64,000 bases of DNA from Acidimicrobiales bacterium (GCA_035526335.1 DATLCN010000046.1:45251-109250); one strand, 5' to 3'. Shown: positions 34,534-62,399, numbered from the stretch's first letter. Translations and numbers: made by a program. Notes: generated from the letters alone by a model not told the origin.

Positions 34534-36071
34534 GCCCGGCGCTGCTCGCCCAGGTGGGTGGCACCACCCGCCCACCCCTCGAGTTGCCGGACGTCGAGTA
34601 CTCGGCGATGGCGCCGGCCCTGATCCTGATCGCCGGCGCACTGATCCTCCTGGTGTGGGTGTCGGTGGTGCGGCGCCGGCCTCCCTGGCTGTGGGCGGTC
34701 TTCACCCTCGCCACCGGCGCCGCCTCGATGGGTGCCTCGTTGTGGCTCTGGTTCGACGTGCGCGACGACGGAGCCCGGCGGGCGGTTTCCGACGCCCTGG
34801 CCATCGACGGGTTCTCGGTGTTCTTCTTCGTCCTGATCGGCGTCGCCGTGATCCTCGGCGCCCTGCTGGGCGAGGGATACCTCCGGCGGGAGGGGTTCGG
34901 TGGTCCCGAGTTCTACGTCCTGATGCTGCTGTCCGCCTCCGGTGCGATGTTCATGGCCGCGGCCAACGACCTCATCGTGGTGTTCCTCGGGCTGGAGATC
35001 CTCTCGATCGCCCTGTACGTGCTCGCCGGATTCCACGGCCGGCGCCTCGAATCGCGCGAGGCGGCGATGAAGTACTTCGTGCTCGGCGCCTTCTCCTCGG
35101 CCCTGTTCCTGTACGGCGTGGCCCTGGTCTACGGGGCCACCGGCTCCACCAACCTCGTCGGCATCGCCCGATACCTGGCTGACAATCTCGCCCTCAACAA
35201 CGGCGTGCTGCTGGCCGGCATGGCCCTGCTCCTGGTCGGCCTGGGGTTCAAGGTGGCGATCGTGCCCTTCCACACCTGGACGCCCGACGTGTACCAGGGG
35301 GCGCCCTCACCGGCCACCGGCTTCATGGCCGCCGCGGCCAAGGCCGCCGGTTTTGCCGCGTTGCTCAGGATCTTCTTCTCCACCTTCTCCACCCTGCGCC
35401 TCGACTGGCAGCCGGTCATCTGGGGCCTGGCCATCGTCACCCTGCTGGTGGGATCGGTGCTGGCCGTGGTGCAGACCGACATCAAACGCATGCTGGCGTA
35501 CTCCTCCATCAGCCACGCCGGATACGTCCTCATCGGCCTCCAGGCCGGCAGCACCAACGGCATCGCCGGGTCGCTGTTCTACCTGCTGGCCTACACGTTC
35601 CTCGTGATCGGCAGCTTCGCCGTGATCACCGCCGTCGGTCGACGGGGCGACTCCCGTCACTCCCTCGGCACCTACCAGGGCCTGGCGGCCAGCCGGCCCG
35701 CTCTGGCGATGGCTTTCGCCGTCCTGCTGCTGGCTCAGGCCGGCGTGCCGTTCACCACCGGGTTCCTGGCCAAGTTCTACGTGATCTCCGCGGCCGTCGA
35801 GTCGAAGTCGTACGCCCTGGCATTGATCGGCATGTTGTCCGCTGTGGTGGCCGCCTTCTTCTACCTGAGGGTGACGGTGCTGATGTACATGACGCCGGCA
35901 CCGGCCGACGAGGGCGCGGGCCTGAGCGGAGGCGTGGTGCAGGTGCCGCCGCGCCTCCCCCTGCCCCTCACGACGTGCATCGCGGTGGCCGTGGCCGTTG
36001 CTTTCACCATCGGCTTCGGCCTGCTCCCCTCGCCCATGGTCCATTTCGCCCGCCAGGCCACGTTGCTTTGA
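34530..36071 (+). CDS. nuoN: NADH-quinone oxidoreductase subunit N
   Basis: FLGLEILSIALYVLAG and KVAIVPFHTWTPDVYQGAPSPATGFM. ATG 34530 overlaps the nuoM stop (ATGA). Confidence 0.92.
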   Translation: MSPALLAQVGGTTRPPLELPDVEYSAMAPALILIAGALILLVWVSVVRRRPPWLWAVFTLATGAASMGASLWLWFDVRDDGARRAVSDALAIDGFSVFFFVLIGVAVILGALLGEGYLRREGFGGPEFYVLMLLSASGAMFMAAANDLIVVFLGLEILSIALYVLAGFHGRRLESREAAMKYFVLGAFSSALFLYGVALVYGATGSTNLVGIARYLADNLALNNGVLLAGMALLLVGLGFKVAIVPFHTWTPDVYQGAPSPATGFMAAAAKAAGFAALLRIFFSTFSTLRLDWQPVIWGLAIVTLLVGSVLAVVQTDIKRMLAYSSISHAGYVLIGLQAGSTNGIAGSLFYLLAYTFLVIGSFAVITAVGRRGDSRHSLGTYQGLAASRPALAMAFAVLLLAQAGVPFTTGFLAKFYVISAAVESKSYALALIGMLSAVVAAFFYLRVTVLMYMTPAPADEGAGLSGGVVQVPPRLPLPLTTCIAVAVAVAFTIGFGLLPSPMVHFARQATLL

Positions 36072-36169
36072 CAGGCGGGCGGGCCTGGGTGCGCCCGAAC
36101 GGCACCGGCTCCGCCCCCTCTGCGCCGGCCTCATTGCGGATGCCACCAAATTACGCCAAGGTTGTATCC

Positions 36170-36880
36170 GTGAAAACGAGGGTCCTGCTGGTCGACGATC
36201 ATCGTGCTTTCGCGGAGGCGGTCGCGTTCCGGCTGGAATACGAACCGGAGCTGGAAGTAGTCGGGGTGGCTGCTTCCCGGGCGGATGCCGAGTCGTACCT
36301 CCGCACCACTGCCGTCGACGTGCTGGTGGTGGACCTTCGGCTCGGCGCCGAAGACGGCCTCGAGCTTGCCTCCGCTGCCCGCCAGGCCGTCCCCGGGCTC
36401 CAGGTGGTGGTACTGAGCCATGTCGACGACGTCGCTTTGGCGACGGCTGCTCTCCGGGCCGGGGCCCTGTCGTTCCTGAGCACGGAGACGACCAGCCATG
36501 ATCTGGTAGCCGCTCTCAAGAGCGCCGGACGGGGCGAGATGTGGCTGGCGCCGGCGATGCTGGAGGCGGTGATCCGCCACCTCCTGGAGGCGGCACAGGG
36601 GGCTGCTTCCTGGCGGCCCCCGTTCTCCCTCCTCACGCCTCGCGAGATCGAGGTGCTCAACTGCATGGCAAGAGGCATGAGTTGCGCGGCCATCGCCGAG
36701 CAGCTGTCGCTGTCCACCCACACCGTGCGCAGTCACGTGCAGAACATGCTGAACAAGCTCAACGTCCATTCGGGGCTGGAGGCCGTGGCGCTGGCGCGGA
36801 GAGCGGGCGTGGTTGACGCACCAGAGCCCGGATCGGCTCCGATGACGCTCGACATCGGAAGCATCCGCCAGGCCAGGTAG
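36170..36880 (+). CDS. NarL/FixJ (LuxR-type HTH) response regulator, orphan, atypical receiver
   Basis: Receiver domain: VLLVDDH and DVLVVDLRLG. C-terminal LTPREIEVLNCMARGMSCAAIAEQLSLSTHTVRSHVQNMLNKL. No histidine kinase gene is adjacent. Confidence 0.85.
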   Translation: MKTRVLLVDDHRAFAEAVAFRLEYEPELEVVGVAASRADAESYLRTTAVDVLVVDLRLGAEDGLELASAARQAVPGLQVVVLSHVDDVALATAALRAGALSFLSTETTSHDLVAALKSAGRGEMWLAPAMLEAVIRHLLEAAQGAASWRPPFSLLTPREIEVLNCMARGMSCAAIAEQLSLSTHTVRSHVQNMLNKLNVHSGLEAVALARRAGVVDAPEPGSAPMTLDIGSIRQAR

Positions 36881-36887
36881 GCGGTCG

Positions 36888-37865
36888 TCAGGCCGAAGAT
36901 GCACCCGGCACCGACGCCGGGCAGCACGTGGCCACGATCTGCTCCACGAGCAGGGGGAGGGTTTCGTAGCTCCGCCGCCTCTCGAGCTGCCAGCCCGGGA
37001 CAGCACCGACGAGACCGACCACCTCGGAGAAGCACCAGGCCTGATCCTCCTTGAGGGGAAGCTTGAAGCTCATGGCGTAGAGGTTGCGGATGGCGACTGA
37101 TGCCTCCAGCGGGGTCAGGCGATCGCGCTTCTCGCTGTTCTTCAGCAGGATCACGCCGCCGATGGGCACCGGGTCACCGGTACCCCGCCGGTGACCGTCG
37201 ATCGACAGGTGGGACCGCCACTGGTCTCTGGCCACCACCGTCGTGCCGGTGAGGTCCATCCGTTCCGCACTGTCCGGCCTCATGCGGAGGAGGGCCGGGC
37301 CAGGGAAGAGGACAGGTGTGGACGTGACGCGGCAGCAGCTGATGTCCTCCGCCAGCACCCGGTAGCCCGCCTGGTGGAAGGCGGCGGCAAGTGTGGTCTT
37401 GCCCGTTCCGCCCGGAGCGACGAACACCAGCGCCTGTCCCGCCACCTCCACGGCGGCGGCGTGCACAGCCAGGTCGCGGCGGGCGCGGAGGCACAAGCTG
37501 GCCGGATAGCTCCACAGCCGCTCCTCCCGATGGACCTCGTCCGGATCGGGCGGCATGGTGACCACCCCCGACCCGGTGTCGATTCCGAACCAACCCTCCT
37601 CGTTCACCTGCAGCCGGAGCTCACCTCCGACCTGGCGCAGCTCGGCTCGAAAAGGGCGTTCGGGGTGCCCTGTGAACAACGCCACGCGGGTGGAGCCAGG
37701 AGGGTCGTCCAACCTCTCCTCGGCGATCTGAAGGGGCACCCCGGATCCCGACCGGACGAACTGCAGCGGCACTGAAGAGGTGACGCCGAACCCGTAACAG
37801 CTGCCCACCGTGGCCTGCCCCGCCGCACCGGTGGTCGTGCCCGAACCCTCGAGCCTTCCCGCCAC
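36888..37865 (-). CDS. HPr-kinase-related (HprK-like) kinase, putative lasso-peptide tailoring kinase
   Basis: P-loop VFVAPGGTGKTTLAAAF in an approximately 300-aa protein, immediately downstream of the PqqD and cyclase genes. Architecture matches the kinases of phosphorylated lasso-peptide clusters. Confidence 0.7.
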   Translation of the reverse strand: MAGRLEGSGTTTGAAGQATVGSCYGFGVTSSVPLQFVRSGSGVPLQIAEERLDDPPGSTRVALFTGHPERPFRAELRQVGGELRLQVNEEGWFGIDTGSGVVTMPPDPDEVHREERLWSYPASLCLRARRDLAVHAAAVEVAGQALVFVAPGGTGKTTLAAAFHQAGYRVLAEDISCCRVTSTPVLFPGPALLRMRPDSAERMDLTGTTVVARDQWRSHLSIDGHRRGTGDPVPIGGVILLKNSEKRDRLTPLEASVAIRNLYAMSFKLPLKEDQAWCFSEVVGLVGAVPGWQLERRRSYETLPLLVEQIVATCCPASVPGASSA

Positions 37866-37873
37866 CTGTCTGC

Positions 37874-38170
37874 TTACTCGTCGAGGCCGGCGTCGAACTG
37901 CGCCAGGTCACGCTCGCGCAGTGCTTCGAGGAACTCCGCCGCCTCCTCGTCCAGCCCAGCCGGCGGGTCGTCGATCCTGGTGCGCAGAGAGGTGAGCAAC
38001 TGGGCGAAGGTGACCTCTTCCTCGAGAAGGCTCCAGATCAGGCCGCCGACCTCATTGACCCCGTGGTACTGCGCGGAACCCACGTGGAGCACCACGCCGC
38101 CACTGCCTTCGGCCAGTTGCCGGTAGACCGCCTCGCTGTTCCGCCGCAGCCGCGTGTCGGGCTCGATCAT
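37874..38170 (-). CDS. PqqD-family RiPP recognition element (lasso B1 candidate)
   Basis: 98 aa. AVYRQLAEGSGGVVLHVGSAQYHGVNEVGGLIWSLLEE...FAQLLTSL...AAEFLEALRERDL matches the PqqD/RRE pattern. Start at ATG 38170. Confidence 0.8.
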   Translation of the reverse strand: MIEPDTRLRRNSEAVYRQLAEGSGGVVLHVGSAQYHGVNEVGGLIWSLLEEEVTFAQLLTSLRTRIDDPPAGLDEEAAEFLEALRERDLAQFDAGLDE

Positions 38171-38195
38171 CTCCGCTCTCCAGCTGCGGCCGGGC

Positions 38196-39977
38196 TCATC
38201 CGAGTGACAGGAAGGCATGCGCGACAGCGAGATCCCGGGCCCAGATGTACTCCCACAGGGTGAGATCCTCTCGCTCGAGGTGACCGGCCAAGGCACCATA
38301 GTCGACACCGTCTACGTTGCGATCATGGCCCAGGATCCAATGACGGAGAGCGGGATAGTCGACGCCGGCCATGATCGCCTCGTTGAAGACGGTGGGCTTC
38401 TCCCGATCGAGAATGGCATCGGGGACCCGCCCCCGCAGCAGGTGACGCACGAGGTCCTTGCTCCGCCGGCCCGGGAACTTCTGCTCCGCTCGGAGGCTGA
38501 TGAAGAACTCCCAGAGGTCCACGTCGGTCCAGGGCATCCGGACCATGATGTTCCGCAGCTCCTGCCGGACCTCGTCCGCTTCGACTCCGATCCCAGGTCC
38601 GCCGAAGGCGACGAGCTGACGGTCGTGCCACCTGGTCCGGGCGCCGACGAGCAGGTCCGAGTCGCCGCCTTCCAGCCGCTCGGCATCCAGGAAGTCGGGT
38701 CGGGGAGCGCCTCGGTACCGGTCCTGGCGGCGGCTCCGCATGTAGCGCAACCTTCCGGGGGCAGCCCATCGGATCAGGTTCCGGGCCGTGCGGGCCGGGC
38801 CGGCGCCGGCGCCCTGCTGGAGTCGCAGTTGGGCCTGAAGCGCCCTGAAGCGGCCGTGGTAGATCAAATGGGTCTCGAGGTGGGAGCGCATCGCCATCAC
38901 GTGCTCGGCCACCTCACCGGTGAGCAGTGTGCGGAAGCCGAGGGCCTCAGCCCGCCGGTAGCTCTCGTCCACCTCGTTCACCGCCCACACGGGGGTCGGT
39001 CCGTCGAGGACCTCCACCCATTCTGTGAGCCTGTCGAGCTGGCCGGCCTGGTGCTCGAAGGTGTGGAGGGGAATGTCGAGGTCGGCGGCCACGATCTCGA
39101 TGTACTCCCGTTCGTCGACGCTCGGCTGGTCGGGGTAGACCGCCGACAAAGCGGAGAGCGGCCGGCCGCCGAGCTCCAGGTGACGGGGCGCGGCGTAGGC
39201 GGCGATGGCGGGTGAATCGATCCCACCGCTGAGCGACACGGCGTCGTGCCCTGTGAGCATGCGGGCGTTGGCCTGGTCCATCAGCTCGTCGAAGCGCTCC
39301 TGGAGCTCCTCCTCGCTGAAGGTGGCCGTTTCGATCAACGACTCGGGATCCCAGTAGCGGCGGAACTCGGACCTGCCGGCGCCGGCCATCATGACCGTCG
39401 ACTTGGCCAGACGCCTCACCCCGCTGACGGCACACGGCGTGTCGTCGTCGTAGTCGCTGAACACGATGGCTGCGACGACATCGGGGTCGGGTCGACGGGC
39501 GATGCCGGCTCCGGCCACGACCTGTTTCGCCTCCGAAGCGAAGAAGACCCTGTCGGGCTCGTTGCGGTAGAAGAGCGACCGGAAGCCCAGCTGATCCCGA
39601 AACGCCCATGCCCGCTGCCCGTCGGTCACGACTGCGGCGAAAACGCCCCGCAGATCCCGCGGTGCCCGCCAGCCCAGGCGCCGGAAGGCGGCCAGGAGCA
39701 GAGCGGCGTGGCTGAACTCCGGCCCGTTCCTCAGGCCCAGCGCCCGGGCCAGGTCTGCAGCGTTGTCGATGACGCCGTTGACGGCAACCCCGAGATCCCC
39801 GTCCACGGCGATGCTGGCCTCGTGGCGGGATGAGCGGTTGCTGACTCCGAGGAGGCAGTGTCCGTGGCGGACCACCTGTCGCTCGTCACCCCTGTGGGGA
39901 GCCGCGGCCAACATCCGCTCGACAGAGGCGGTACCCGAGTCCCCCCGGCGATCCAGAACCGCTACGACGCTGGGCAC
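38196..39977 (-). CDS. Asparagine-synthetase-like lasso peptide cyclase (C protein)
   Basis: PP-loop SLSGGIDSPAIAAYAA. AsnB-like N-domain without the N-terminal catalytic Cys (starts (M/V)PSVVAV rather than MCG). GTG start. Confidence 0.85.
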   Translation of the reverse strand: MPSVVAVLDRRGDSGTASVERMLAAAPHRGDERQVVRHGHCLLGVSNRSSRHEASIAVDGDLGVAVNGVIDNAADLARALGLRNGPEFSHAALLLAAFRRLGWRAPRDLRGVFAAVVTDGQRAWAFRDQLGFRSLFYRNEPDRVFFASEAKQVVAGAGIARRPDPDVVAAIVFSDYDDDTPCAVSGVRRLAKSTVMMAGAGRSEFRRYWDPESLIETATFSEEELQERFDELMDQANARMLTGHDAVSLSGGIDSPAIAAYAAPRHLELGGRPLSALSAVYPDQPSVDEREYIEIVAADLDIPLHTFEHQAGQLDRLTEWVEVLDGPTPVWAVNEVDESYRRAEALGFRTLLTGEVAEHVMAMRSHLETHLIYHGRFRALQAQLRLQQGAGAGPARTARNLIRWAAPGRLRYMRSRRQDRYRGAPRPDFLDAERLEGGDSDLLVGARTRWHDRQLVAFGGPGIGVEADEVRQELRNIMVRMPWTDVDLWEFFISLRAEQKFPGRRSKDLVRHLLRGRVPDAILDREKPTVFNEAIMAGVDYPALRHWILGHDRNVDGVDYGALAGHLEREDLTLWEYIWARDLAVAHAFLSLG

Positions 39978-39988
39978 ATCAAACGCGA

Positions 39989-40024
39989 ATCATCGCCGAG
40001 GCGACTGTGCACCTCGGCGATGAT
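39989..40024 (-). terminator. Perfect 13-bp stem / 10-nt loop hairpin between the lasso precursor gene and the cyclase gene (attenuator-type)
   Basis: ATCATCGCCGAGG-cgactgtgca-CCTCGGCGATGAT. It lies 46 nt after the A stop and 11 nt before the C GTG start. On the minus strand it is followed by TCGCGTTTGATG. Confidence 0.5.
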
Positions 40025-40070
40025 CCAACTCCTCGCGTTTCCGTTCGGAGCCGAAAACCACTCAGTCGCG

Positions 40071-40214
40071 TCAGGGAGAAGCGAACGGGTGCGAAAACTC
40101 GCCGTACTTGTCGGTTTCCATGACCGTCGAACTCTTGTCACCTTTTCCGGGATTGTCGAACGTGTGCTCGGCTACTGAGCCGAAATCCACGATCGTGGGC
40201 TTCTCGTATCGCAT
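40071..40214 (-). CDS. Lasso peptide precursor (A peptide), 47 aa: MRYEKPTIVDFGSVAEHTFDNPGKGDKSSTVMETDKYGEFSHPFASP
   Basis: Strong SD (GGAGGGAGG) 6 nt upstream of the ATG. The leader matches YxxPxLx3Gx5Tx (Y3, P6, I8, G12, T18). It lies directly upstream of the cyclase in a locally lower-GC stretch. Confidence 0.8.
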   Translation of the reverse strand: MRYEKPTIVDFGSVAEHTFDNPGKGDKSSTVMETDKYGEFSHPFASP

Positions 40215-40309
40215 CTGCACCTCCCTCCGTCGTGATCTCGATGATTCTAACCGAGAGTGACCATGGCGGGGAACCCTCAGAAGCACTAGTTACTGTGCTG
40301 TAGCCCCGC

Positions 40310-41143
40310 TCAATAGAGCCCCAGTGTACCAAGACGGCGTTCCCGTCGAAGCGCCAGCCGGAAGGCCAAGCCACCGGCGAGCAGCGAGATGGCCGCCATC
40401 GGCGCCAGCTTGAGCAGGGTGGGGACGATCCCTGACCACCCCGCATGCCCGAGCAGTGCATTGCGGGCCGCGCCCAGGGCGATGGCCACCGGATTGAGAC
40501 GGGCTACGGCCTCCAGCCAGTTCGGTAGCACGTCGAGGGGGAAGTAGGCCCCCGAGGTCATGGTCAAGGCGGCGCCGGCGAAGCCGGTGACGGCGCCGCC
40601 ACGCCTGAAGGTGAGCACGCCGGCCGCGCTCACCACGCCCAGTCCCCAGACGACGGGGATCAGGGCCAGCATCACAGCTGCCGCTGGGCCGAACCCGCTG
40701 AGGTCGAACCCGAGGTGGAAGAGAAAGTGCGCCATTACGAGGAACAAACTGGTGCGAAACGGGACATACACCATGTCGAAGGTCACGAACCCGAGTTGCA
40801 GTGTGGCCGGCGCGCTGGGTGTCATCATCAGGGCCTCGAGGGTTCCCATCAGCTGCTCGTTACGGACGGCCGCCATCACCTGCCCCAGCGCCACCTGCAC
40901 GAAGCCGCTCGTGGCTATACCCACCGCCACGAACTGGAGATACGTCGCACGGCTCCCGCCGAACTGCGGCAACCGGGAGGGGTCCACCAGCCGGCCGACG
41001 AAGGAGAAGGTGACGAGGTTGATCAGCAGCCCGATCCAGTCGGTCCACACTGCGGTCTTGTAGCTGAGCAGCACGAGAAGATCCCGCCGGAAGAAGGCGG
41101 GCAGCTTCCGTAGCTCCTCCACCAGCGCACGACGTCTTGTCAA
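40310..41143 (-). CDS. ABC-2 type transporter permease
   Basis: 277 aa with about 6 TM segments. N-terminal FFRRDLLVLLSYKTAVW is typical of ABC-2 permeases. TTGA overlap with the upstream ATPase gene. Confidence 0.8.
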   Translation of the reverse strand: MTRRRALVEELRKLPAFFRRDLLVLLSYKTAVWTDWIGLLINLVTFSFVGRLVDPSRLPQFGGSRATYLQFVAVGIATSGFVQVALGQVMAAVRNEQLMGTLEALMMTPSAPATLQLGFVTFDMVYVPFRTSLFLVMAHFLFHLGFDLSGFGPAAAVMLALIPVVWGLGVVSAAGVLTFRRGGAVTGFAGAALTMTSGAYFPLDVLPNWLEAVARLNPVAIALGAARNALLGHAGWSGIVPTLLKLAPMAAISLLAGGLAFRLALRRERRLGTLGLY

Positions 41144-42153
41144 GCCTGCTCGCCGTCACCGGTCAGACGGAGGAAGGCCTCCTCCAGCTGGGATCTCTCC
41201 TCCTGGCATGCCACCACCTGGATGCCGTGCGCTCCCAGGTCGTTCATCACGTCTCCGAGGAGCACTTCGTCTTCCAGGGTGACGATGAAGTGCTCGACGT
41301 CAGGCGTGGCCTGGACCGATCCCCTCTGGGCCAGCGCGGCGGCCAGCTGGTCCGCGGTCGGCGGAACGTTGCTTCCGGTTCGTACCCGGAGCAGGAAACG
41401 GCGCAGCTCGACGGTGGCGAGAAGTTCCGGCACGCTCCCGGAGAACCGCACGCGACCCGAGCGGAGAACCGTTACCACCTGGGCGAACCCCTTCACCTCC
41501 TCGAGACGCTGCGTCGCCCATAGAACGGCAGCACCGCGCTCGGCCGCCTGTACCACCAGTGCCCGGATGCGACGAGCTCCTTCCGGATCGAGGTCGTGGG
41601 TGGCTTCGTCCACGACCAGCACACTGGGACTTCCGAGAAGGGCGCGGGCCATCGCCAGTCGCTTTTGCATCCCGTGCGAGTAGACCCCGACGCGGCGGTC
41701 GGCCGCTTCGGTGAGGCCTACCGCCTCCAGGCACTTCCGCGCCCGCTGCAGGGAGTCGCGGCGGTTGCGCCCGTCCAGTCTGGCGAAGAAAGCCAGGTTC
41801 TCCAGGCCCGATATCCGAAGGTAGAAGGTGCGGTCGCCGGAGGGCACCATGGCGATGGCCTTCCGGTATTCCCGGCTGTCGGGGCCGGCGGCCACCCCGG
41901 CCGCCGTCACCTCCCCACTGTCAGGCTGGAGCAGGCCGGTGACGATACGGAGAAGGGTGGTCTTTCCGGCACCGTTGGGGCCCAGCAGCGCATGGATCTG
42001 CTGGCGGGCCACCTTGATCGTGACCTGGTCCAGCGCCTGGAGGGCTCCGAACCGCCGCGACACCTGCGACACCTCCAGGGCGAGGCTGCCATCGGGGGGC
42101 ACCGGAGGCTCAGAGGGGTTCAAACCAGCACACGGCTTCCGATGCGCGAGCAT
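41140..42153 (-). CDS. ABC transporter ATP-binding protein
   Basis: Walker A GPNGAGKTT, signature-like YSHGMQKRL and Walker B VLVVDEATHDLD. Start set at ATG 42153, so it does not overlap the divergent B2 gene. Confidence 0.85.
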   Translation of the reverse strand: MLAHRKPCAGLNPSEPPVPPDGSLALEVSQVSRRFGALQALDQVTIKVARQQIHALLGPNGAGKTTLLRIVTGLLQPDSGEVTAAGVAAGPDSREYRKAIAMVPSGDRTFYLRISGLENLAFFARLDGRNRRDSLQRARKCLEAVGLTEAADRRVGVYSHGMQKRLAMARALLGSPSVLVVDEATHDLDPEGARRIRALVVQAAERGAAVLWATQRLEEVKGFAQVVTVLRSGRVRFSGSVPELLATVELRRFLLRVRTGSNVPPTADQLAAALAQRGSVQATPDVEHFIVTLEDEVLLGDVMNDLGAHGIQVVACQEERSQLEEAFLRLTGDGEQA

Positions 42154-42199
42154 AAGCGACCCGTCGCAGGCCTGGGATCGCTCCGCGTTACCATCTCGG

Positions 42200-42655
42200 A
42201 TGATCGAACCGGGTGACGCGGCACCGGACGTTCCCGGCGCGAAGGCCGTGTACAAGGGACCGCTCAGGCCGGTCGAAAAGCTGCTGCTCTTCGGCCGGAT
42301 CTGGTTCTGGGGAGCATGGGTACGGGTTCAGCTGCGCCGCTGCGAGCTGCCTGACGTCGTAGGGCGGCTCGGGGAGGTCCCGCCACGGGCAGCCTCCCGG
42401 CCGGTGAACCCGCTCAGGCTCGGCAAGATCGTGCACCGAGCGTCGTGGATAGGCCCGTTCAAACCCCGATGCCTGGTGATCGCGCTGGTGCATTTCCGGC
42501 TGTTGAGGGAACAGGGTGAAGCGGCGCAGCTCGTGATCGGACTGCCCGCCGGACCCCAGGACATCGCCGCCCACGCGTGGGTGGAGATGGGCGGCGTGGA
42601 CGTTGGCCCGCCGCCGGGGCGGGGACGCCACGAAGAGCTCGTCCGTTACGCCTGA
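42200..42655 (+). CDS. Lasso peptide leader peptidase B2 (transglutaminase-like Cys protease)
   Basis: 151 aa. Catalytic-type Cys in KPRCLVIALV and His in AAHAWVEMGGVDV. N-terminal hydrophobic LLLFGRIWFWGAWV is typical of McjB C-terminal-domain homologs. Confidence 0.8.
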   Translation: MIEPGDAAPDVPGAKAVYKGPLRPVEKLLLFGRIWFWGAWVRVQLRRCELPDVVGRLGEVPPRAASRPVNPLRLGKIVHRASWIGPFKPRCLVIALVHFRLLREQGEAAQLVIGLPAGPQDIAAHAWVEMGGVDVGPPPGRGRHEELVRYA

Positions 42656-42674
42656 ACGGTGAGGGCGGATGGGT

Positions 42675-43037
42675 TCAGACGGAGATGTCCGGGTTGCTGA
42701 GGCCGACCTCGGTGTCCTGAGGGCTGTTTATCTCGACGAAGCCGTTGCACGCCAAGGCCAGGATGAAGGCTGCGATCTCTTCGCGAAACGAGTTCGGAAT
42801 ATCCTCGAACCGGACCTCGAGCCCGGCCAGCAGGCTGAGGAAGGTCGGGCCTCCTTCCAGGAGGGCCCAGACCACCGCGCCCACATGGTTCACGCGGTAG
42901 CAGTTCTCTGCATCCCGCAGGTAGAGGGCGCCGCCACTCAGGTCCGAGAGCTCGTGGTACACCGCCTGCGGGCTGCGGCGTATCTCAGCATGGTCAGCGA
43001 CTCCCCCCATGGTTCGGGAAGTGTAGCGGGACGCCAA
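42675..43037 (-). CDS. Second PqqD-family peptide-binding protein (RRE / peptide chaperone)
   Basis: AVYHELSDLSGGALYLRDAENCYRVNHVGAVVWALLEGGPTFLSLLAGL...EIAAFILALACNGFVE parallels the first PqqD protein. The start may be at M10 (43010). Confidence 0.75.
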   Translation of the reverse strand: MASRYTSRTMGGVADHAEIRRSPQAVYHELSDLSGGALYLRDAENCYRVNHVGAVVWALLEGGPTFLSLLAGLEVRFEDIPNSFREEIAAFILALACNGFVEINSPQDTEVGLSNPDISV

Positions 43038-43252: not shown

Positions 43253-44740
43253 ATGCGTTCGCTTACGAATGGATCAGGCTTGAAGGGAGCAGGTGTATCC
43301 GCCGATCCGGCACGGCGGGGCCAATCGGACGGTGTCAAGCGCGAGCAGGCCCGATCCGCAGTCTCGGCCCGGTCCCGGTCCAGGTCCGTGACGATTCTCA
43401 CCGTCCTCTCCGCTGTGCTCGACGGGCTCGCCGTCGCCGGCGCCTTCACGTTGAACGCCGAGGCGGCTCCGGGTGAGCGCAGCACGATCGTGGCCATGGT
43501 GGCCGTCGTCTTCGCGGCTGTGCTCGTGGGGCTCAAGGACCGCCGCCGGCTCCTGGCGCCTGTGGAGGAACTTCGGAGACTCGTGAAGGGCGTTTCCGCC
43601 GGTGCGGTCGGCATCGTGCTCGTGTCCTTCGCCCTCCATGTCGAGGTGTCCCGGGGTTGGGTCGTGGCCCTCTGGGCGACCAGCACGGCTACGGTCGGCC
43701 TGTCGCGCCTGATAGCTCGCGCCACGATCAAATCGCTCAATAGCCGTCGTGTACTCGGTCGGGCGACGCTGGTCGTGGGAACCAACGACGAGGCCAGGAT
43801 CATCGCCCGCATCCTGGAGCGTCAGCCTTGGCGGGGATATCACGTGGCCGGCTTCGTCTCCGTGGGACCTCTGGCGACGGCTCGGCTGGATGGCCATGCC
43901 GTCGTCGGAACCACCGCTCAGGTGGCTGACGCAGTGGCGCGCCACGAGGCCGGCGTGGTGATCATCGCCGGTACGGCCACGCCGCCGGCAGAGCTCCTCG
44001 AACTGACCCGCGTCCTGGAGCTCCTCGACGTCGAGGTACGCATCTCGCCAGGGCTTCCCCATGTCGCAGCTTCCAGGATGACGGTCGCCGCGATGGACGG
44101 GCTGGCCATGCTCTGTCTCCGGAAGCCGCAGTTCACCAGGTTCCAGTCCCGGGTGAAGCGCTCCTTCGACCTGGTCGTGGCGTCGATTCTCGCTGTCATC
44201 CTGGCGCCGGTGGCATTGGTCATCGCCATGGCCGTGTGGTTCAGCAGCGGCCGGCCGGTTATCTTCCGCCAGCTGCGCGTGGGTGCCGGCGGAAAGTTGT
44301 TCACGATCTACAAGTTCCGCACCATGGTGCCAGATGCCGAATTACGGCTCGACGAGGTGCTCGGGCAGAACCAGGCCGACGGGTTGCTGTTCAAGCTCCA
44401 CGACGACCCCCGCGTCACACGGCTGGGACGGGTGCTGAGGCGTTGGGGTCTCGACGAGCTCCCCCAGCTCGTCAACGTGTTGAAGGGAAACATGAGCATG
44501 GTGGGGCCCCGGCCGGCCCTGCTGACGGAGACCACGAGCTACGACGAGAGAATGAGGAGCCGCCTGAGGGTGCTTCCCGGCCTCACCGGCCTCTGGCAGG
44601 TCAACGGCCGCCACGAGCTCCTCTTCGACGACTACATCCGTTACGACCTCTACTACGTGGACAACTGGTCGTTGGGTCTCGACCTGTGGGTCATCGCCAA
44701 GACGATTCCCGCTCTGCTGACCCGCCGAGGATCCCATTGA
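43253..44740 (+). CDS. Polyprenyl-phosphate glycosyl-1-phosphate transferase (WbaP/CpsE-type priming sugar transferase)
   Basis: C-terminal bacterial sugar transferase domain: KRSFDLVVA, IFRQLRVG..GKLFTIYKFRTM, DELPQLVNVLKGNMSMVGPRP and PGLTGLWQV. TM segments lie N-terminal to it. Confidence 0.88.
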   Translation: MRSLTNGSGLKGAGVSADPARRGQSDGVKREQARSAVSARSRSRSVTILTVLSAVLDGLAVAGAFTLNAEAAPGERSTIVAMVAVVFAAVLVGLKDRRRLLAPVEELRRLVKGVSAGAVGIVLVSFALHVEVSRGWVVALWATSTATVGLSRLIARATIKSLNSRRVLGRATLVVGTNDEARIIARILERQPWRGYHVAGFVSVGPLATARLDGHAVVGTTAQVADAVARHEAGVVIIAGTATPPAELLELTRVLELLDVEVRISPGLPHVAASRMTVAAMDGLAMLCLRKPQFTRFQSRVKRSFDLVVASILAVILAPVALVIAMAVWFSSGRPVIFRQLRVGAGGKLFTIYKFRTMVPDAELRLDEVLGQNQADGLLFKLHDDPRVTRLGRVLRRWGLDELPQLVNVLKGNMSMVGPRPALLTETTSYDERMRSRLRVLPGLTGLWQVNGRHELLFDDYIRYDLYYVDNWSLGLDLWVIAKTIPALLTRRGSH

Positions 44741-44749
44741 GGATCGGGG

Positions 44750-45955
44750 TCAGCCGGCTGGTTCCGCCCGGGGATCGCCGCTGACCGCTGAAAGGTATTC
44801 GCACAGGTGGGCGGGATCGCCGGTGGGACGGAGCCACTCCAGCGAGACGTCCGGGCCCCGCTCCTCTCGATCGGACCTGGCCGTCAATCGCCGCGAGGCG
44901 CTGACGGCCAGCGCCCCCAGGCTCGATCGCAGGTCGGCGCGGGTGGCCCGGGCCACCATGGTTGCCGGCGACGCTGGTTGTGAGGTCCGCTCGACCGGCC
45001 AGAGAGTGTCGGCCGCGGACACGACCGACCGCCACGCCCACCCCGACAGAGACCGCATCACCTCCGGGGGCACCGCGAAGCCGAGGGTGTCGCGGGCCCG
45101 AAGGAGCATGGTCGCCACTACCAGGTCGACCCGCCACGTCCTCGCCCGCCGGATCACCTCGTCCCAGTCGGGCGTGTCGTAGAGAACCGCCTGCTCGATG
45201 TCCTTCAGCCACCTGAGCTTGCCACCCCCTTCGCGGAACGAATGCACGGCGAGGTGGATGAGCAGGTCGCTCGGGTCGAGTGACCGGACCTGGTGATCGC
45301 CCACCCGGACAGGCCGGCACCGCTCCAGCATCGCCTCGGTCGGGATGGAGAAGCTTCCTCGTAGATCACCGTCGTAGAGCAGCTCCCAATGCAGGTCGAG
45401 GAGCGTCCCGTGTGGGAGCACGATGTTCACCTCTCCGGCCATCTGCTCCTTGGCGATCATCCAGTTACGGTCCACGAGCGGGCACCCGCTCGCCTCGAAG
45501 GCCCGGACCACGGTGGCGAAGTCGGCACGCGGGACGAGCAGGTCGAGGTCGCTGTAGCTCCGCAGGTCGTGGTGGCGGTAGACCGCCTCGGCCAGCACCG
45601 GGCCCTTGAGTACCGCCCAACTCACCCCGGTGCCGGCGAGGAGGCGGGCAACAGTCCGCAGATCGGCGAGTACCCGCAGGTGCGCTTCGAGCGACCGCCG
45701 GCGGGCCAGGTCGAGCCTTTCCAGCACCTGCTCCTCTACGCCGTCGAGGGACTTCAGGCTGTAATAGGCGCAGGCGGCGACTCCGTGGGTGATGGCTGCA
45801 TCAGGCAATGAGCTCAGGTCGGCACCGGCGACGAGGCGCCCCAGACCCGGTGGTGGGATCCCCCAGTCGTGCTCCGACGTGCACAGCGCCAGCACCCGGC
45901 CGCGGAGACGTGCCTGACGGGCGCCGGCGATGAGCCGACCAGCTTCAGCGAACAC
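44750..45955 (-). CDS. Uncharacterised nucleotidyltransferase family (NTP_transf_5-like) protein
   Basis: VLKGPVLAEAVYRHHDLRSYSDLDLLVPRADF...LDLHWEL is the pattern I associate with PF14907-type nucleotidyltransferases. Confidence 0.65.
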   Translation of the reverse strand: MFAEAGRLIAGARQARLRGRVLALCTSEHDWGIPPPGLGRLVAGADLSSLPDAAITHGVAACAYYSLKSLDGVEEQVLERLDLARRRSLEAHLRVLADLRTVARLLAGTGVSWAVLKGPVLAEAVYRHHDLRSYSDLDLLVPRADFATVVRAFEASGCPLVDRNWMIAKEQMAGEVNIVLPHGTLLDLHWELLYDGDLRGSFSIPTEAMLERCRPVRVGDHQVRSLDPSDLLIHLAVHSFREGGGKLRWLKDIEQAVLYDTPDWDEVIRRARTWRVDLVVATMLLRARDTLGFAVPPEVMRSLSGWAWRSVVSAADTLWPVERTSQPASPATMVARATRADLRSSLGALAVSASRRLTARSDREERGPDVSLEWLRPTGDPAHLCEYLSAVSGDPRAEPAG

Positions 45956-47468
45956 GGTTGAGGAGGTCGTCCCGGGCGTCGGTGAGCAGGTGCGGTGCGA
46001 ACATCAAAAGGTATGCGGAGTAGGCCGTGCCCCCGCCGGCGACGGAGGCGGCGAAGCGCAACCCGAAGCCCGTCGATTCGGGAACCATAACCAGTGCCAG
46101 CCACGCGCACAGGGCCATCGCGGCCGACGCCGCCGCCACCGGCACGACGGTCATCAGAAGTATGTGGACCCGGGTCTGGAGTGTCCTCGCCACCAGCCCG
46201 AGAGATACGGGCAACAGCAGGTAGCCGGCCACCGTGAACCCGGTGGCCACCCCGGCTATGCCATGGCCCACCCCAACGGCGAAGCCGATGACGTAGAAGA
46301 AGAATCCCGTGGCGGCCATCCAGAAGTCCAGGGACGGTTTGCCGATGGCCGAGTAGACGGCACCGTTGAGGCGGTTCATGGCGATGCGGGGGCCGTTGAG
46401 GGCGAGGATCTGCACGGTGGCCACCGCCGGCAACCAACGTGATCCGAACACGAGCGGTATCAACACCGGCGCCGTCACCGCGATCCCCAGTGAGGCCGGG
46501 AAGCAGAGGAGAGCGATGCTTCTGATAGCCCTGCAGAAGGCCGTCCGGATCCGCGCGATGTCGTGCTGGATCGAGGAGAACGCCGGGAACACGACGCTCC
46601 ACACGACGTCGGCCACCTTCTGGATGGGAAAGAGCATGAGCCGGTAGGCGAGGCCGTAGAAACCGAGCGCGGTCGCTCCCAGGACCTTCCCGACGATCAG
46701 ATTGTCGATGTTCGTCTGGCCGTAATAGATCAGCCTGAATCCCGAGGAATAGGCGCCGAAGCCGGCGAGGTCGGCCGCAGCGGCACGATTGATGCCGATT
46801 CGTGGGTGCCAGACACCTGCCCGCAGGGCGGCCAGGGCGACGGCGACGAACGCGACGAAGGTCTCGCCGAGCGAGTAGGCCACCAGAGCCCAGACACCGG
46901 CACCGAGGAAGGCCAGCACCACGCCGGCGACGCCTCCCACGCTCACGGCTATCACCGTCGACACCACGATGGGCCTGAACCGCAGCTCCCGTTGGAGGAG
47001 CTGCCTGGGCGCACCCTGGAGTGCCCGGAAGATAAAGGTGAGACTCATGACCAGGAGAACGGGATGGAGGTCCGGCTCCTCGAAGAAGCTGGCCAGGTGG
47101 GGCGATGACCAGGCGACCACGGCTGCCATCAGGAGTCCGGCCAGGCCGCTCAGGGTCGTGGCCGTGGTGACGTGTTCGGGCGACAACTCCCGCCGGTGGA
47201 CGAGGGCGGAACCGAAGCCGAGGTCCCCGAGCAGATCCGCCAGTTGCGTGACTATGAAGGCCATGGCGATGATGCCGAAATCGGCAGGAGCCACGAGCTT
47301 GGTCAGCACGGCCAGGATGGCGAGGCGGGCGAACTGCTGGAAGCCCTGGTCCACCATGCCCCATCGGAGGCCTGAGGTCACCTGGGCGCGGAGACCCGGT
47401 ACCTCCTCGGTCAACTGCACCGGCAGGTGGTCCTGGGTGGTGTCGCCGGCGTCAGGGCCTGTCAGCAC
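45945..47468 (-). CDS. Polysaccharide flippase (Wzx / MOP superfamily)
   Basis: About 12-14 TM segments. N-terminal GLRWGMVDQGFQQFARLAILAVLTKLVAPADFGIIAMAF is typical of Wzx-type polysaccharide biosynthesis proteins. Confidence 0.8.
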   Translation of the reverse strand: MLTGPDAGDTTQDHLPVQLTEEVPGLRAQVTSGLRWGMVDQGFQQFARLAILAVLTKLVAPADFGIIAMAFIVTQLADLLGDLGFGSALVHRRELSPEHVTTATTLSGLAGLLMAAVVAWSSPHLASFFEEPDLHPVLLVMSLTFIFRALQGAPRQLLQRELRFRPIVVSTVIAVSVGGVAGVVLAFLGAGVWALVAYSLGETFVAFVAVALAALRAGVWHPRIGINRAAAADLAGFGAYSSGFRLIYYGQTNIDNLIVGKVLGATALGFYGLAYRLMLFPIQKVADVVWSVVFPAFSSIQHDIARIRTAFCRAIRSIALLCFPASLGIAVTAPVLIPLVFGSRWLPAVATVQILALNGPRIAMNRLNGAVYSAIGKPSLDFWMAATGFFFYVIGFAVGVGHGIAGVATGFTVAGYLLLPVSLGLVARTLQTRVHILLMTVVPVAAASAAMALCAWLALVMVPESTGFGLRFAASVAGGGTAYSAYLLMFAPHLLTDARDDLLNRVR

Positions 47469-48636
47469 GGGCCTGGAACGCGGATTCGTACACCTCGAGC
47501 AGTGCGTCGACGTGCGCGTCCAGCGAGTAGCGCTCTGTCACCCGTTGGCGCCCCGCCCGCCCCAGCCGTTCGCGCTGCCCCGGATCGGACGCCACCTCCA
47601 CCAAGGTGGTCGCGGACGCAGTGGCATCCTCCATGTCGATCAGCCGGCCCGTGACCCCTTCCTCCAAAAGGTCCGTTATGCCGCCGGCGGTCGCGCCCAC
47701 CACGGCCCGTCCGGTGGCCCAGGCTTCGAGTACCACCCGCGCCGTACCCTCGCCTCGCGACGGCACGATGGTGAAATCGGCGGCCGACATCAGGGCGGGC
47801 ACGTCCGGTCGCGAGCCGAGGAAGTGGAGCCGGCTGCCGGCGGGGGATGCCGCCGCCTGCGCGATCAGGGCCCGTCGGATGTTCCGGCCCTCCGTGTACG
47901 TCGCACCGCCGGCATGTGCGACATGCAGCTTCGGGTCCTTCTCGAGGGCATCCAGCACGATCGGCACCAGGAGGTCCAGGCCCTTGAACCAGTGGAAGTT
48001 GGCCACCACCAGGCCGAGAACGGCTGTGTCCGGTATGCCGAGATCGCTCCTGACCTGCGACCGGTCGATCGGTTGAGGAAACCCTCCGCTGTCGATGCCG
48101 TTGGGGATGAAACGCACCGCCATGCCGGGAGCACCGACCTGATCCGCGGTGGCCGTGCTGTTGGTCACGACGAAGGCGCCGGCCTGCCTGAGCGATCGTG
48201 CAACCGGGACATGGCTCGGGACGCGGAGGTGGGCCACCACAGGGAGACCTGCGACGAGGGCCGATCTCGCGATCCTCTCGCACCGCGGCCCCAGATGCGA
48301 GACGTGGACGAGATCGAAGGATCCCGAGGTGGCGGCCCTCGAGATCAGCGGCGCGCGAAGAGGCCCGGGCGTACGCCTCGCCGCTCCAGGCAGCAGCTTC
48401 AGGCCCTTTTCCGTCGCTACCCGCGCCATCGGGCCGCGCCGCCCGGCAAACGCCAGCGTTACGTCGATCCCCCGCCCGGCCATGGTCTCGGCGGCCAGCA
48501 ACGTGCTCGTCTCGGCACCGGCCAGGTAGGCGTTCTCGGAGACGAGAAGGACGTGCCGGGGCCTCAAGGAGTCCGCAGGACGAGGACTCTCGTCGGCCTC
48601 CGCCGGCTCGGCCGCCGAGGCCGCCTCACAACGCAT
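47452..48636 (-). CDS. Glycosyltransferase, GT-B fold (GT4-like)
   Basis: C-terminal PSRGEGTARVVLEAWATGRAVVGATAGGITDLLEEGVTG (E-x7-E region). Start set at ATG 48636. Confidence 0.8.
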   Translation of the reverse strand: MRCEAASAAEPAEADESPRPADSLRPRHVLLVSENAYLAGAETSTLLAAETMAGRGIDVTLAFAGRRGPMARVATEKGLKLLPGAARRTPGPLRAPLISRAATSGSFDLVHVSHLGPRCERIARSALVAGLPVVAHLRVPSHVPVARSLRQAGAFVVTNSTATADQVGAPGMAVRFIPNGIDSGGFPQPIDRSQVRSDLGIPDTAVLGLVVANFHWFKGLDLLVPIVLDALEKDPKLHVAHAGGATYTEGRNIRRALIAQAAASPAGSRLHFLGSRPDVPALMSAADFTIVPSRGEGTARVVLEAWATGRAVVGATAGGITDLLEEGVTGRLIDMEDATASATTLVEVASDPGQRERLGRAGRQRVTERYSLDAHVDALLEVYESAFQARADRP

Positions 48637-53303: not shown

Positions 53304-54320
53304 CTACCGTCCGTGGGCGCTCGGGGCCGCGTCCTCCGGGGCGATCCGCGGGGAACCGAACAATCTCCGGAATACCGCCGATGCTCGGGGTGAACTCCCG
53401 TTGGAGAGCTGATGAGTGCCGTAGTCCCAGAAGTTGGCGTAGGCGACCTGGTTGGACGATATCCACCGGCTCATGGCCTCGATGAACTGCGGATCGTCAC
53501 CGCCGCCCCCTCGGCGGCGAGGCCACAGGCCCCACTCGTCGAACGACATCGGCTTGCGATGTGAAGCCGCGAACCGACGGTGCCAGTCGAGGCCGAAAGG
53601 CTCGTTCACCATGTCGTCCCAGCGGGCCGTGAAGTTGTTCGTGTGCCAGAAGCTGCTGTCGTAGTTGTCGAGCCCGATGTAGTCGACGTACTCGTCGCCG
53701 GGGTAGGACAGGTCCGGTGACGTGGCCTGTCGGCCGCGGGTCGGGTTCCAGGCGAAACGGAAGTGGGCGCCGGGAACCGACCTCATGGCGTTCACGATCC
53801 TGCGCCAGTACCGCACGAACGCCTCCTCGTGGCCGGCCGCGGCCCATGGAAACCAACTCCCGTTGAACTCCCATCCGAGTCGGATCGTGTCAGCGGCATG
53901 GCCCCGGGTGACGAGAACGTGGGCCAGGGCCGAGAAATGTCGGTCATAGCGGCCGGCAGCGCCGGCGTCGAGGCTGGATCCGTTCGTCGTGAGGATGGGC
54001 ACACCCCACTCGAAGGCGACCCGTCCCTGGTCGGCTTGCCACCGGTCGAGGATCCAACTCGGGTTCTCGATCGTCCTCCACGAGCGCCCGTCGAAGAAAT
54101 CGAGGACCTGGTCGACCGACCGCCCGGTCCAGGTCTCGAATCTGCGGACCCCGCTCGAGTTGCCTGCCCCGCGGTACACCCCGAAGCGCCGGGATTCCAG
54201 ACTCCTCGGGGACGAGGCGGGCGATGTCCTACGGGCCTCCGGGTTCGTGGCGCCGGCGGCCAACGACGCGCCGAGCGCGAGTGCCGCCACGAGAACTGCG
54301 CACAGGCGGGTGGGCTTCAT
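53304..54320 (-). CDS. Secreted clan GH-A glycoside hydrolase, GH26-like
   Basis: Signal peptide. RLGWEFNGSWFPW (acid/base Glu context) and MSFDEWGLW (nucleophile Glu context). Confidence 0.6.
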   Translation of the reverse strand: MKPTRLCAVLVAALALGASLAAGATNPEARRTSPASSPRSLESRRFGVYRGAGNSSGVRRFETWTGRSVDQVLDFFDGRSWRTIENPSWILDRWQADQGRVAFEWGVPILTTNGSSLDAGAAGRYDRHFSALAHVLVTRGHAADTIRLGWEFNGSWFPWAAAGHEEAFVRYWRRIVNAMRSVPGAHFRFAWNPTRGRQATSPDLSYPGDEYVDYIGLDNYDSSFWHTNNFTARWDDMVNEPFGLDWHRRFAASHRKPMSFDEWGLWPRRRGGGGDDPQFIEAMSRWISSNQVAYANFWDYGTHQLSNGSSPRASAVFRRLFGSPRIAPEDAAPSAHGR

Positions 54321-57992: not shown

Positions 57993-58002
57993 GGCCTGGT
58001 CG

Positions 58003-60188: not shown

Positions 60189-60273
60189 TCGATCAGACGA
60201 GAGCAGCTTGGCATTGGTGCTCTGGCTGGACGCTCACCGCCACCAACTATACCCGTGACCATGGGCGGGCAGA

Positions 60274-62343: not shown

Positions 62344-62399
62344 TTCCCTCGGTAGCCTTTCGTGGACCCGACCGAGCCAGGATTTGGAGGAGTGTCCGG

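Follow-up and report, generated by a model that had tools for sequence, protein, structure and literature searches.

A kinase-associated lasso-type peptide cluster of an uncultured soil Acidimicrobiales bacterium, and a candidate internal Lys-Asp ring in its precursor family

Lasso peptides are defined by an N-terminal amine joined to an Asp or Glu at positions 7-9, and mining tools score candidate precursors in these terms. Which amine, then, closes the ring in a family that possesses the lasso biosynthetic genes and a canonical leader, yet breaks this rule in its core? The question is raised by a gene cluster in a 64,000-nt stretch of DNA from an Acidimicrobiales bacterium (hereafter the window, with positions counted from its first letter). 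It comprises a 47-aa precursor (A), an Asn-synthetase-like cyclase (C), a leader-recognition protein and a leader peptidase encoded separately (B1 and B2), an ABC exporter and an HprK-like kinase (K). An initial annotation had described this very set, and open reading frame (ORF) calls and profile searches recovered all eight of the genes that it listed, at the same coordinates and in the same families; the C, B2 and PqqD families that it proposed to check by hidden Markov models (HMMs) were each assigned (Table 1), and its remark that the product is uncharacterised holds. All reading frames of the cluster are intact. Kinase homologues in 40 loci from metagenome-assembled genomes (MAGs), the closest of 80 kinase-homologue loci retrieved, are accompanied by the same set of genes, which is thus not a chance assembly. 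We are confident that the locus is a functional-looking, kinase-tailored cluster of lasso type for a ribosomally made peptide with post-translational modifications (RiPP). The annotated reading, lasso plus HPr-kinase-like enzyme, was therefore right in kind; it is partly supported, in that the core sequence, which it had left unexamined, departs from the lasso rule across the family. We tentatively propose that the ring would be closed by a Lys side chain within the core.

The leader leaves little to question. The precursor consists of MRYEKPTIVDFGSVAEHTF (leader) followed by DNPGKGDKSSTVMETDKYGEFSHPFASP (core); its prediction in the initial annotation is upheld by the gene-level evidence of Table 1 and by homologues that adjoin C in more than 30 loci, and it scores 18.3 bits against the lasso leader model NF033521, whose cut-off is 19. 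The leader itself reads YEKPTIVDFGSVAEHTF and matches the motif Y-x-x-P-x-L-x3-G-x5-T-x with exact spacing and Thr at -2. Throughout the family the leader has the spacing Y-17, P-14, I/L/V-12, G-8 and T-2, and ends in H-T-F. In the precursor alignment (MAFFT), Y3, P6, G12, T18 and D35 are invariant, and H17, F19, K27 and E39 nearly so; precursor Lys27, Asp35 and Glu39 are Lys8, Asp16 and Glu20 of the core. As a control, precursors encoded beside distant kinase homologues in Sphingomonadales show identical leader spacing (…GSVRNLTG) and canonical cores, with Gly1 in 20/20 and Asp8 in 19/20.

The core is another matter. To describe its conservation, 137 distinct precursor sequences were collected from genome loci, from a phmmer search over 1.84 billion representatives and from a scan of metagenomes with the leader pattern D[FY]GSIAxHTF, which biases the sample towards that leader variant. 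The lasso core rule of a small residue 1 and an Asp or Glu at 7-9 does not hold in this set: the acid occurs in 55 of the 137 (40%), and residue 1 is Asp in 35, Thr in 26, then Gln, Asn, Ile, Val and others, with Gly in 7 and either Gly or Ser in 10 of the 137. The window core has Asp1 and Asp7. The latter is not conserved, for a sister subfamily of the form QTPGKGTK-S..D-K-[YF]-x-E-[FY]-S-H-P (L033) has Thr7 in its place, with the downstream residues kept and an intact C. What is constant lies further along. When 128 cores were anchored on D-x3-E-x-S, a definition independent of Lys, a Lys was found 8-10 residues before the Asp in 122 (at 8 in 43, at 9 in 66, at 10 in 13); Arg never takes its place, and the acceptor is Asp in 121 of these 122. 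In 1000 trials with the upstream residues shuffled, 33.1 +/- 4.7 cores had a Lys so placed, and at most 49. The pattern is present in 20 of 21 sequence clusters formed at 50% identity. Measured from H-T-F, the Lys lies 4-39 residues downstream and the Asp 13-47, so that the spacing between the two is constant while their distance from the cleavage site varies, and the fixed element of the core is Lys-x(7-9)-Asp.

Whether this pair is retained in the product depends on where the leader ends, and here the distribution of Cys is informative. The Cys count is even in 82 of the 85 cores that bear any. Where a single Cys lies between H-T-F and the Lys (27 cores), one or three Cys follow the Lys in 26; where none lies there, an odd number follows in 2 of 91. 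The association is seen in at least seven unrelated spacer types (ARAQIP…, TRC…, IVC/SRC/STC…, IRC…, GGARK…, VTPA…, TNAGAG…). As disulfides form after export, this parity implies that the stretch from H-T-F to the Lys belongs to the exported molecule. To our knowledge, Thr at -2 is the determinant of B2 cleavage in all studied systems; the Thr of H-T-F is invariant, while the position two before the Lys varies (D, G, P, T, H and others). We found no second peptidase besides B2 in the window, and none conserved among the family loci. Cys parity, the invariant Thr and the want of a second protease together argue for cleavage at Phe19|Asp1, which places the Lys-Asp pair within the product.

A further observation comes from one degenerate relative, in which the cluster has the order A-B1-(70-aa C remnant)-K-B2 (L014:863-2762). 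Its core, TRAGGNCQSPNLGPIFNQYSCTSFSS, contains no Lys, Asp or Glu at all, whereas its sister L022 (TRAGGTGPKVGDWQVCKLDKQQEYSCTSFS), where C is intact, has all three. Because of the constant spacing, the strict retention of Lys over Arg in a high-G+C genome and this loss in L014, a single case, we favour an isopeptide between the Lys8 side chain (Nζ) and Asp16, to which we assign a probability of roughly 0.45.

A good deal weighs against this assignment. We know of no lasso cyclase that uses a Lys side chain. The ring chemistry is deduced from conservation, and C scores 133 bits against the lasso cyclase model NF033535, for which the cut-off is 525, with TIGR01536 about equal. Literature searches on lasso rings closed by Lys, and on lasso peptides of Thermoleophilia/Gaiellales, returned nothing beyond class V, and in a 2026 review the rings listed are all N-terminal, of 7, 8 or 9 residues (PMC13352647). 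A canonical ring whose residue 1 directly followed Lys would likewise show a Lys-Asp spacing of 8-10, and in 77 of the 122 the residue so placed is Gly or Ser; in the window core, moreover, Asp7 makes a canonical 7-residue ring formally possible. B2 is kept in 33/40 loci, though a Lys nucleophile needs no free N-terminus. Six cores are exceptions to the spacing (6, 7 or 11 residues), the acceptor could be Glu20 instead of Asp16, and the sequences are phylogenetically related, so that raw counts overstate their independence.

Other readings were weighed against the same data. If the peptide were an ordinary lasso, B2 would cut after Phe19 and the Asp1 alpha-amine would be joined to Asp7, giving a 7-residue ring, a 21-residue tail and Ser phosphorylation as in paeninodin; the leader is canonical at every spacing, Asp7 is part of a GDK motif found throughout the D/N-N-P-G-x-G-D-K subfamily, and 7-residue rings are known (PMC13352647). 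Yet an acid at 7-9 is confined to the 40% noted above, the Thr7 subfamily has an intact C, residue 1 is Asp and not Gly, Ala, Ser or Cys, and the invariant Lys8 and Asp16 would go unexplained. The 7-residue lasso rings known to us use Glu, not the shorter Asp, and on balance we think this arrangement unlikely. Still less probable, in our estimation, is an extended leader, in which the spacer from H-T-F to Lys would be removed and the core would run from Ser9, as a Ser1-Asp8 ring (SSTVMETD) with the 12-residue tail KYGEFSHPFASP. Such a core would account well for the sequences just downstream of Lys, with ring sizes of 8 (43 cores), 9 (66) and 10 (13) and a residue 1 that is Gly in 41 and Ser in 36 of the 122, all typical of lasso peptides; but the spacer Cys is paired with the rest in 26 of 27 cores, which means that the spacer is exported with the rest, the position two before Lys is unconserved whereas the H-T-F Thr is invariant, a spacer of 3-38 residues is a poor fit to a B2 anchored by B1, a second protease is not conserved, and the Lys is never Arg. 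A second cleavage after Lys8 had in fact been our initial preference, and was set aside as the main reading on the Cys parity and the absence of a conserved second protease. A core beginning at Gly6 (G-D-K-S-S-T-V-M-E, with a Gly1-Glu9 ring) was also considered, and fails in the nearest homologues.

Known lasso cyclase chemistry would be retained, and the presence of B2 explained, by a large lariat with a bond from the residue 1 alpha-amine to Asp16 or Glu20, the sole acids conserved family-wide, with Lys8 kept for some other purpose such as recognition by K, C or the nucleotidyltransferase N described below. We give this little credence: the ring would span 13-47 residues across the family, unlike that of any lasso cyclase, and the fixed Lys-Asp spacing and the absence of Arg would be left without explanation. 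Very improbable indeed is that C and N serve the adjacent polysaccharide locus, in the manner of the amidotransferases of XrtA/PEP-CTERM exopolysaccharide (EPS) systems, the peptide being only phosphorylated and trimmed, or the cluster decaying, with no macrolactam formed. C does match TIGR03108, the XrtA/PEP-CTERM amidotransferase model, at 90 bits, N lies in an operon with Wzx and GT4 genes, and sugar transferases recur near the family; against this, the gene for C is flanked by those of A and B1 within a single operon, its linkage with A, B1, B2 and K is seen in 35/40 loci regardless of EPS genes, and C lacks the glutaminase Cys that amidotransferases need and has its frame intact like the remainder of the cluster.

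Taking the Lys8-Asp16 isopeptide as the working assignment, a pathway can be proposed from the enzymes at hand. B1 would bind the Y-x-x-P...T leader, and K would phosphorylate the linear precursor, most likely at Ser22 of D16-K-Y-G-E20-F-S22, with Ser27 as the alternative. B2 would cleave after His-Thr-Phe19, and C would adenylate the invariant Asp16 and close the macrolactam with the side-chain amine of Lys8 as nucleophile. The result would be a 9-residue internal ring, K-SSTVMET-D, with two tails: a free one of 7 residues (DNPGKGD) on the N-terminal side, and one of 12 residues on the C-terminal side, which may thread the ring. The peptide would be exported, and N, on the model of PsmN, may attach sugar to the phosphate, possibly with neighbouring glycosyltransferases.

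For the cyclase, sequence features expected of its part stand beside the low lasso-model score given above. Its Cys2 nucleophile is absent, the protein starting MPSVV, in agreement with the annotated lack of an N-terminal Cys, and the PP-loop SGGIDS is kept. Sequence searches of the PDB with C, B2 and N gave no useful matches, and no solved relative of C was found by this means. The assignment of K as an HprK-like kinase stands as to its fold and its match to TIGR04352 (HprK_rel_A); that match is confined to the P-loop region and, at 48.8 bits, falls well short of the cut-off of 200. Scores against ScmC models are likewise low (20 bits with TIGR04249, cut-off 125; a weak PF27840 match in public annotation), and a profile of 26 kinase homologues gave weak PDB matches to HPr kinase/phosphatase structures. 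The AlphaFold (AF2) model of K has a confidence (pLDDT, predicted local distance difference test) of 91.6, and in Foldseek it retrieved ATP-dependent PEPCK (E 7e-9) and HPrK/P kinase domains (E 3e-6, with TM, the template-modelling score, 0.55-0.61 on the target); judged by this predicted structure, K is a member of the PEPCK/HPrK superfamily. Residues H135, G152-G153-T154-G155-K156-T157-T158 and E173-D174 are invariant in the 26 homologues. They conform to the motif His...G-x-x-G-K-S/T...[DE]D with the spacing of BsfK H148/K169/D187, residues shown to be essential in that enzyme (PMC10368454).

The choice of Ser22 as the phosphorylation site rests on a contrast within the family. The Ser two residues past the acid in the D-x3-E-x-S block is kept in 124 of the 128 anchored cores, whereas the 137 sequences end variously, in Ser (62), Pro (35), Asp (16) or others, and the window core ends A-S-P; it is thus the internal Ser that is conserved, and we propose it as the kinase site. 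Characterised lasso kinases modify the precursor while it is still linear, and target either a strictly conserved C-terminal Ser (paeninodin and pseudomycoidin; PMC9266682) or Ser3 (BsfK; PMC10368454). The paeninodin-type analogy drawn in the initial annotation is accordingly sound in that a kinase belongs to a lasso cluster, but does not extend to the phosphosite, the peptide here ending in Ser-Pro and a C-terminal Ser being far from general. As for the sugar, PsmN, an uncharacterised nucleotidyltransferase, is required for hexosylating the phospho-Ser of pseudomycoidin (PMC6993621), and neighbourhoods of kinase, nucleotidyltransferase and glycosyltransferase genes are known in Firmicute lasso clusters (PMC7533575). 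Annotation suggests that N is PsmN-like, with the corresponding activity predicted. A bulky phospho-glycosyl group six residues past the ring could act as a steric lock for a wider-than-usual ring, an idea that Zyubko et al. raised for pseudomycoidin (PMC6993621).

The features of the locus are collected in Table 1, together with gene presence among the 40 related loci, as determined with family HMMs on unfiltered six-frame ORFs.

Table 1. Features of the window and their occurrence in the 40 closest related loci
Feature	Position	Strand	Evidence	Related loci
LuxR-type response regulator (receiver + GerE)	35975-36880	+	Response_reg 65 bits, GerE 66 bits (Pfam)	near kinase in 3/40 only
K, HprK/ScmC-like P-loop peptide kinase, 325 aa	36888-37865	-	TIGR04352 E 5e-13, predicted fold	
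B1, PqqD-type leader-recognition protein (RiPP recognition element, RRE), 98 aa	37874-38170	-	PqqD 46.8 bits; NF033536 lasso_PqqD E 5e-8, under model cut-off	34/40
C, Asn-synthetase-like ATP-dependent amide-bond-forming cyclase, 593 aa	38196-39977	-	Asn_synthase 77.5 bits, GATase_7 48.5 bits	35/40
Stem-loop, 15-bp perfect GC-rich stem	39986-40027	-	between precursor stop codon and cyclase start codon	
A, 47-aa precursor	40071-40214	-	ribosome-binding site GGAGG, public gene call, homologues	
Core coding sequence	40071-40157	-		
Leader coding sequence	40158-40214	-		
Codon of Ser22	40092-40094	-		
Codon of Glu20	40098-40100	-		
Codon of Asp16	40110-40112	-		
Codon of Lys8	40134-40136	-		
ABC-2 type permease (exporter and/or immunity)	40310-41143	-	ABC2_membrane 42.7 bits	
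ABC transporter ATPase, DrrA type	41140-42153	-	ABC_tran 101.6 bits, TIGR01188 drrA 203.7 bits	31/40
B2, transglutaminase-fold Cys leader peptidase, 151 aa	42200-42655	+	NF033537 lasso_biosyn_B2 53.7 bits (above cut-off 33), Transglut_core3 59.7 bits	33/40
Second PqqD-family protein	42675-43037	-	PqqD 25.2 bits (cut-off 23.4), TIGR04248 E 4.8e-6	this locus only
Polyprenyl-phosphate glycosyl-1-phosphate transferase (Bac_transf)	43253-44740	+	TIGR03025 404.5 bits (cut-off 295.6)	10/40 (within 10 kb of kinase)
N, NTP_transf_5 nucleotidyltransferase, 401 aa	44750-45955	-	PF14907 160.7 bits, E 6e-47	28/40; within 5 kb of K in 26
Wzx-type flippase	45945-47468	-	Polysacc_synt_3 261.5 bits	
GT4 glycosyltransferase	47452-48708	-	Glyco_trans_1_4 79 bits	
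1527-aa Ig-domain protein (right flank)	48626-53209			
GH26-like protein (right flank)	53304-54320			
GH26-like protein (right flank)	54401-56083			
Wzy/O-antigen-ligase-like protein (right flank)	56511-58142			
Further GT2/GT4 genes (right flank)	59169-63461			

The layout is non-canonical, as had been remarked, with B2 on the opposite strand, two PqqD genes and the exporter genes first. The second of these PqqD proteins comes nearest to ScmD and shares 36% identity with B1 (BLASTP E 5e-18); it may present the leader to K or to N. Upstream of the cyclase gene, the stem-loop is followed by CGTTTGATGT, a weak T-tract. The 111-nt stretch containing it has a minimum free energy of -52.2 kcal/mol (z = -3.5), and none of 200 shuffled sequences folds as well. 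A hairpin after the precursor gene is a common device of RiPP operons for keeping the precursor transcript in excess, and the sequence makes it likely that the present one is a partial terminator or attenuator, or a stabiliser, raising the ratio of precursor to enzyme transcript.

The B2 gene is divergent from the ABC genes, and the start codon of the ABC ATPase is ambiguous, lying between 42102 and 42255. Taken at their longest, the ORFs of B2 (plus strand, from 41828) and of the ATPase (minus strand, to 42255) share about 430 nt; if translation begins at the likely positions, 42200 and 42102-42153, only 47-98 nt separate the two divergent genes, scant space for two promoters. A scan for sigma-70 promoters returned no sites, but is uninformative for the phylum of the host. 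At the other end, the LuxR-type regulator gene is convergent with the kinase gene, with 7 nt between the stop codons, and its true start is likely downstream of 35975; it is a possible regulator of the cluster, although its membership is doubtful.

The borders of the cluster required some revision. The left flank is the end of the nuo operon (nuoM, nuoN), followed by the LuxR-type response regulator. A position wedged between respiratory operons, as initially described, is found on this side only, because the right side, from 43.2 to 63.5 kb, is devoted to polysaccharide biosynthesis: positions 43253-63461 form a large surface-polysaccharide locus that starts at the priming sugar-phosphate transferase. 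The annotated range of 36888-43037 does hold the core genes, but its right border was drawn too tightly, for the NTP_transf_5 gene belongs to the assemblage. This gene recurs near K in relatives and has the PsmN precedent, for which reasons we extend the cluster to at least 45955 and consider N probably a part of it, though it lies 6.9 kb from K in the window. The Bac_transf gene sits between the two parts of the cluster so delimited, and its link to the peptide is possible. The start of N overlaps the stop of Wzx by 11 nt, and Wzx and GT4 overlap likewise; from these stop-to-start overlaps, GT4, Wzx and NTP_transf_5 form one translationally coupled operon. Wzx and GT4 are possibly co-opted for glycosylation of the peptide, or are merely a neighbouring EPS operon.

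The host is an uncultured soil Acidimicrobiales bacterium, its NuoD being 96% identical to proteins of MAGs designated "Acidimicrobiales bacterium"; the sole sequencing run that contains the sequence is a soil metagenome. In two close relatives the genes that follow nuoN are unrelated to those of the window: fn3, HTTM and DUF5819 genes in L198 (GCA_035536185.1; NuoN 90% identical), and a complete second nuo operon in L199 (GCA_002861595.1; NuoN 86% identical). Together with the low identity of the best kinase homologue (46%), this argues that the cluster is accessory in the lineage, and by sequence comparison the lasso-plus-polysaccharide region is variable in these Acidimicrobiales. Signs of a mobile island were sought and not found: the window contains no tRNA genes, the cluster is not flanked by repeats, and base composition does not shift there, the G+C content being 65-75% across the whole 64 kb.

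Beyond this lineage the family is widespread. More than 250 kinase homologues, all unnamed, were recovered at 38-47% identity from 5.8 billion proteins searched, and the closest 40 loci are from MAGs of Gaiellaceae, Thermoleophilia, other Actinomycetota, Chloroflexota and Gemmatimonadota. Gene order is fluid, with B2 directly 3' of K in about half of the loci. Recurrent neighbours include GT2, GT4, a PMT-like protein mannosyltransferase, a 2OG (2-oxoglutarate) oxygenase and a fusion of NTP_transf_5 to a methyltransferase; sugar transferases, GT2/GT4 and PMT-like proteins lie beside related clusters L001, L002, L011, L013, L015 and others. NTP_transf_5 is fused to an S-adenosylmethionine (SAM) methyltransferase domain in L005:15305-16678, and in L001:7647-9944 the protein, of 765 aa, is much extended at its N-terminus; such fusions and extensions hint at further phosphate or sugar chemistry.

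Several loci depart from the common pattern. Two loci, L005 and L030, have A, B1, C and K (the kinase at about 10001-10900 in each) and precursors that retain H-T-F, but show no B2 gene in the 10 kb to each side of the kinase; either that gene lies elsewhere, or removal of the leader is uncoupled from ring closure. Three loci from Acidimicrobiia MAGs (L023, L026 and L027) carry the kinase and B1 with two to four tandem precursors (…EHTY) and a fused ABC exporter; neither Lys-x(7-9)-Asp nor D-x3-E-x-S is present in their cores, no B2 was found, and C is either missing or far away. These loci look like a separate kinase-associated RiPP branch within the window's own class. In a Solirubrobacterales MAG (L058:9689-12739), a distant kinase homologue lies beside a protein like the second PqqD and a radical SAM-PqqD fusion, an arrangement resembling the SynChlorMet (SCM) cassette in which lasso genes are absent.

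Comparative sequence analysis thus suggests, with rather less than even confidence, a widespread and unrecognised lasso-lineage RiPP family in uncultured soil Actinomycetota, Chloroflexota and Gemmatimonadota, whose members would have an internal Lys-Asp ring of 9-11 residues and two tails, disulfide-tied in those with Cys, and a phospho- or phosphoglycosyl-Ser lock six residues past the ring. If this is true, the substrate scope of lasso cyclases widens, an internal ring with two tails constitutes a new interlocked topology, and hundreds of clusters of soil bacteria have been mis-scored or missed.

Among the closest known systems are those of paeninodin (pade, Paenibacillus dendritiformis C454) and of the kinases ThcoK and SyanK, which likewise combine the lasso A/C/B1/B2/D set with an HPr-kinase-like enzyme; the paeninodin-type kinase acts on the linear precursor before leader removal (PMC9266682). 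They have a C-terminal phospho-Ser and a ring from the N-terminus to an Asp or Glu at 7-9, in contrast to the internal conserved Ser and the Lys-x(7-9)-Asp element seen here, and the window kinase is but weakly related to theirs, as its TIGR04352 score indicates. Pseudomycoidin (psm, Bacillus pseudomycoides) pairs a kinase with PsmN, which adds one or two hexoses to the phospho-Ser (PMC6993621), just as the window and 28/40 relatives pair a kinase with NTP_transf_5; N of the window differs, however, in being separated from the core genes by B2, the second PqqD and the sugar transferase and grouped with Wzx and GT4, and the precursor architecture is different. The same K and N pair occurs in bsf (Bradymonas sediminis), where BsfK targets an internal Ser3 and is stimulated by B1 (PMC10368454), but the bsf precursor has Ile at -2 and a canonical ring, whereas the window family has the invariant Thr at -2 and a candidate Ser six residues after the conserved Asp.

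With regard to the proposed linkage, a ring closed by a Lys side-chain isopeptide is known among lasso peptides only from class V (lariocidin B, gelatinamin A). There it is a second ring, to the C-terminus, made extracellularly by the clostripain-like GelP atop an Ala1-Asp8 ring (PMC13178200); in the present family the Lys-Asp pair would be the primary ring, and a clostripain-like peptidase was neither found in the window nor conserved in the family. Side-chain macrolactams of Lys with Asp or Glu are also made in another RiPP class, the graspetides (omega-amide/omega-ester), by ATP-grasp ligases via acyl phosphates, while the one candidate ligase of this cluster is an Asn-synthetase homologue, adenylating and of lasso lineage. 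The SCM cassette offers a partial parallel on the kinase side, in that ScmC (HprK-like) and ScmD (PqqD-like) are matched by the window kinase (PF27840, TIGR04249) and the second PqqD (TIGR04248), respectively; SCM has radical SAM enzymes, of which there are none in the window, and the scores lie far under the equivalog cut-offs. The cluster represents a second, phylogenetically remote system for predicted tailoring by a kinase and a nucleotidyltransferase (phospho-glycosyl), here merged with polysaccharide-export genes.

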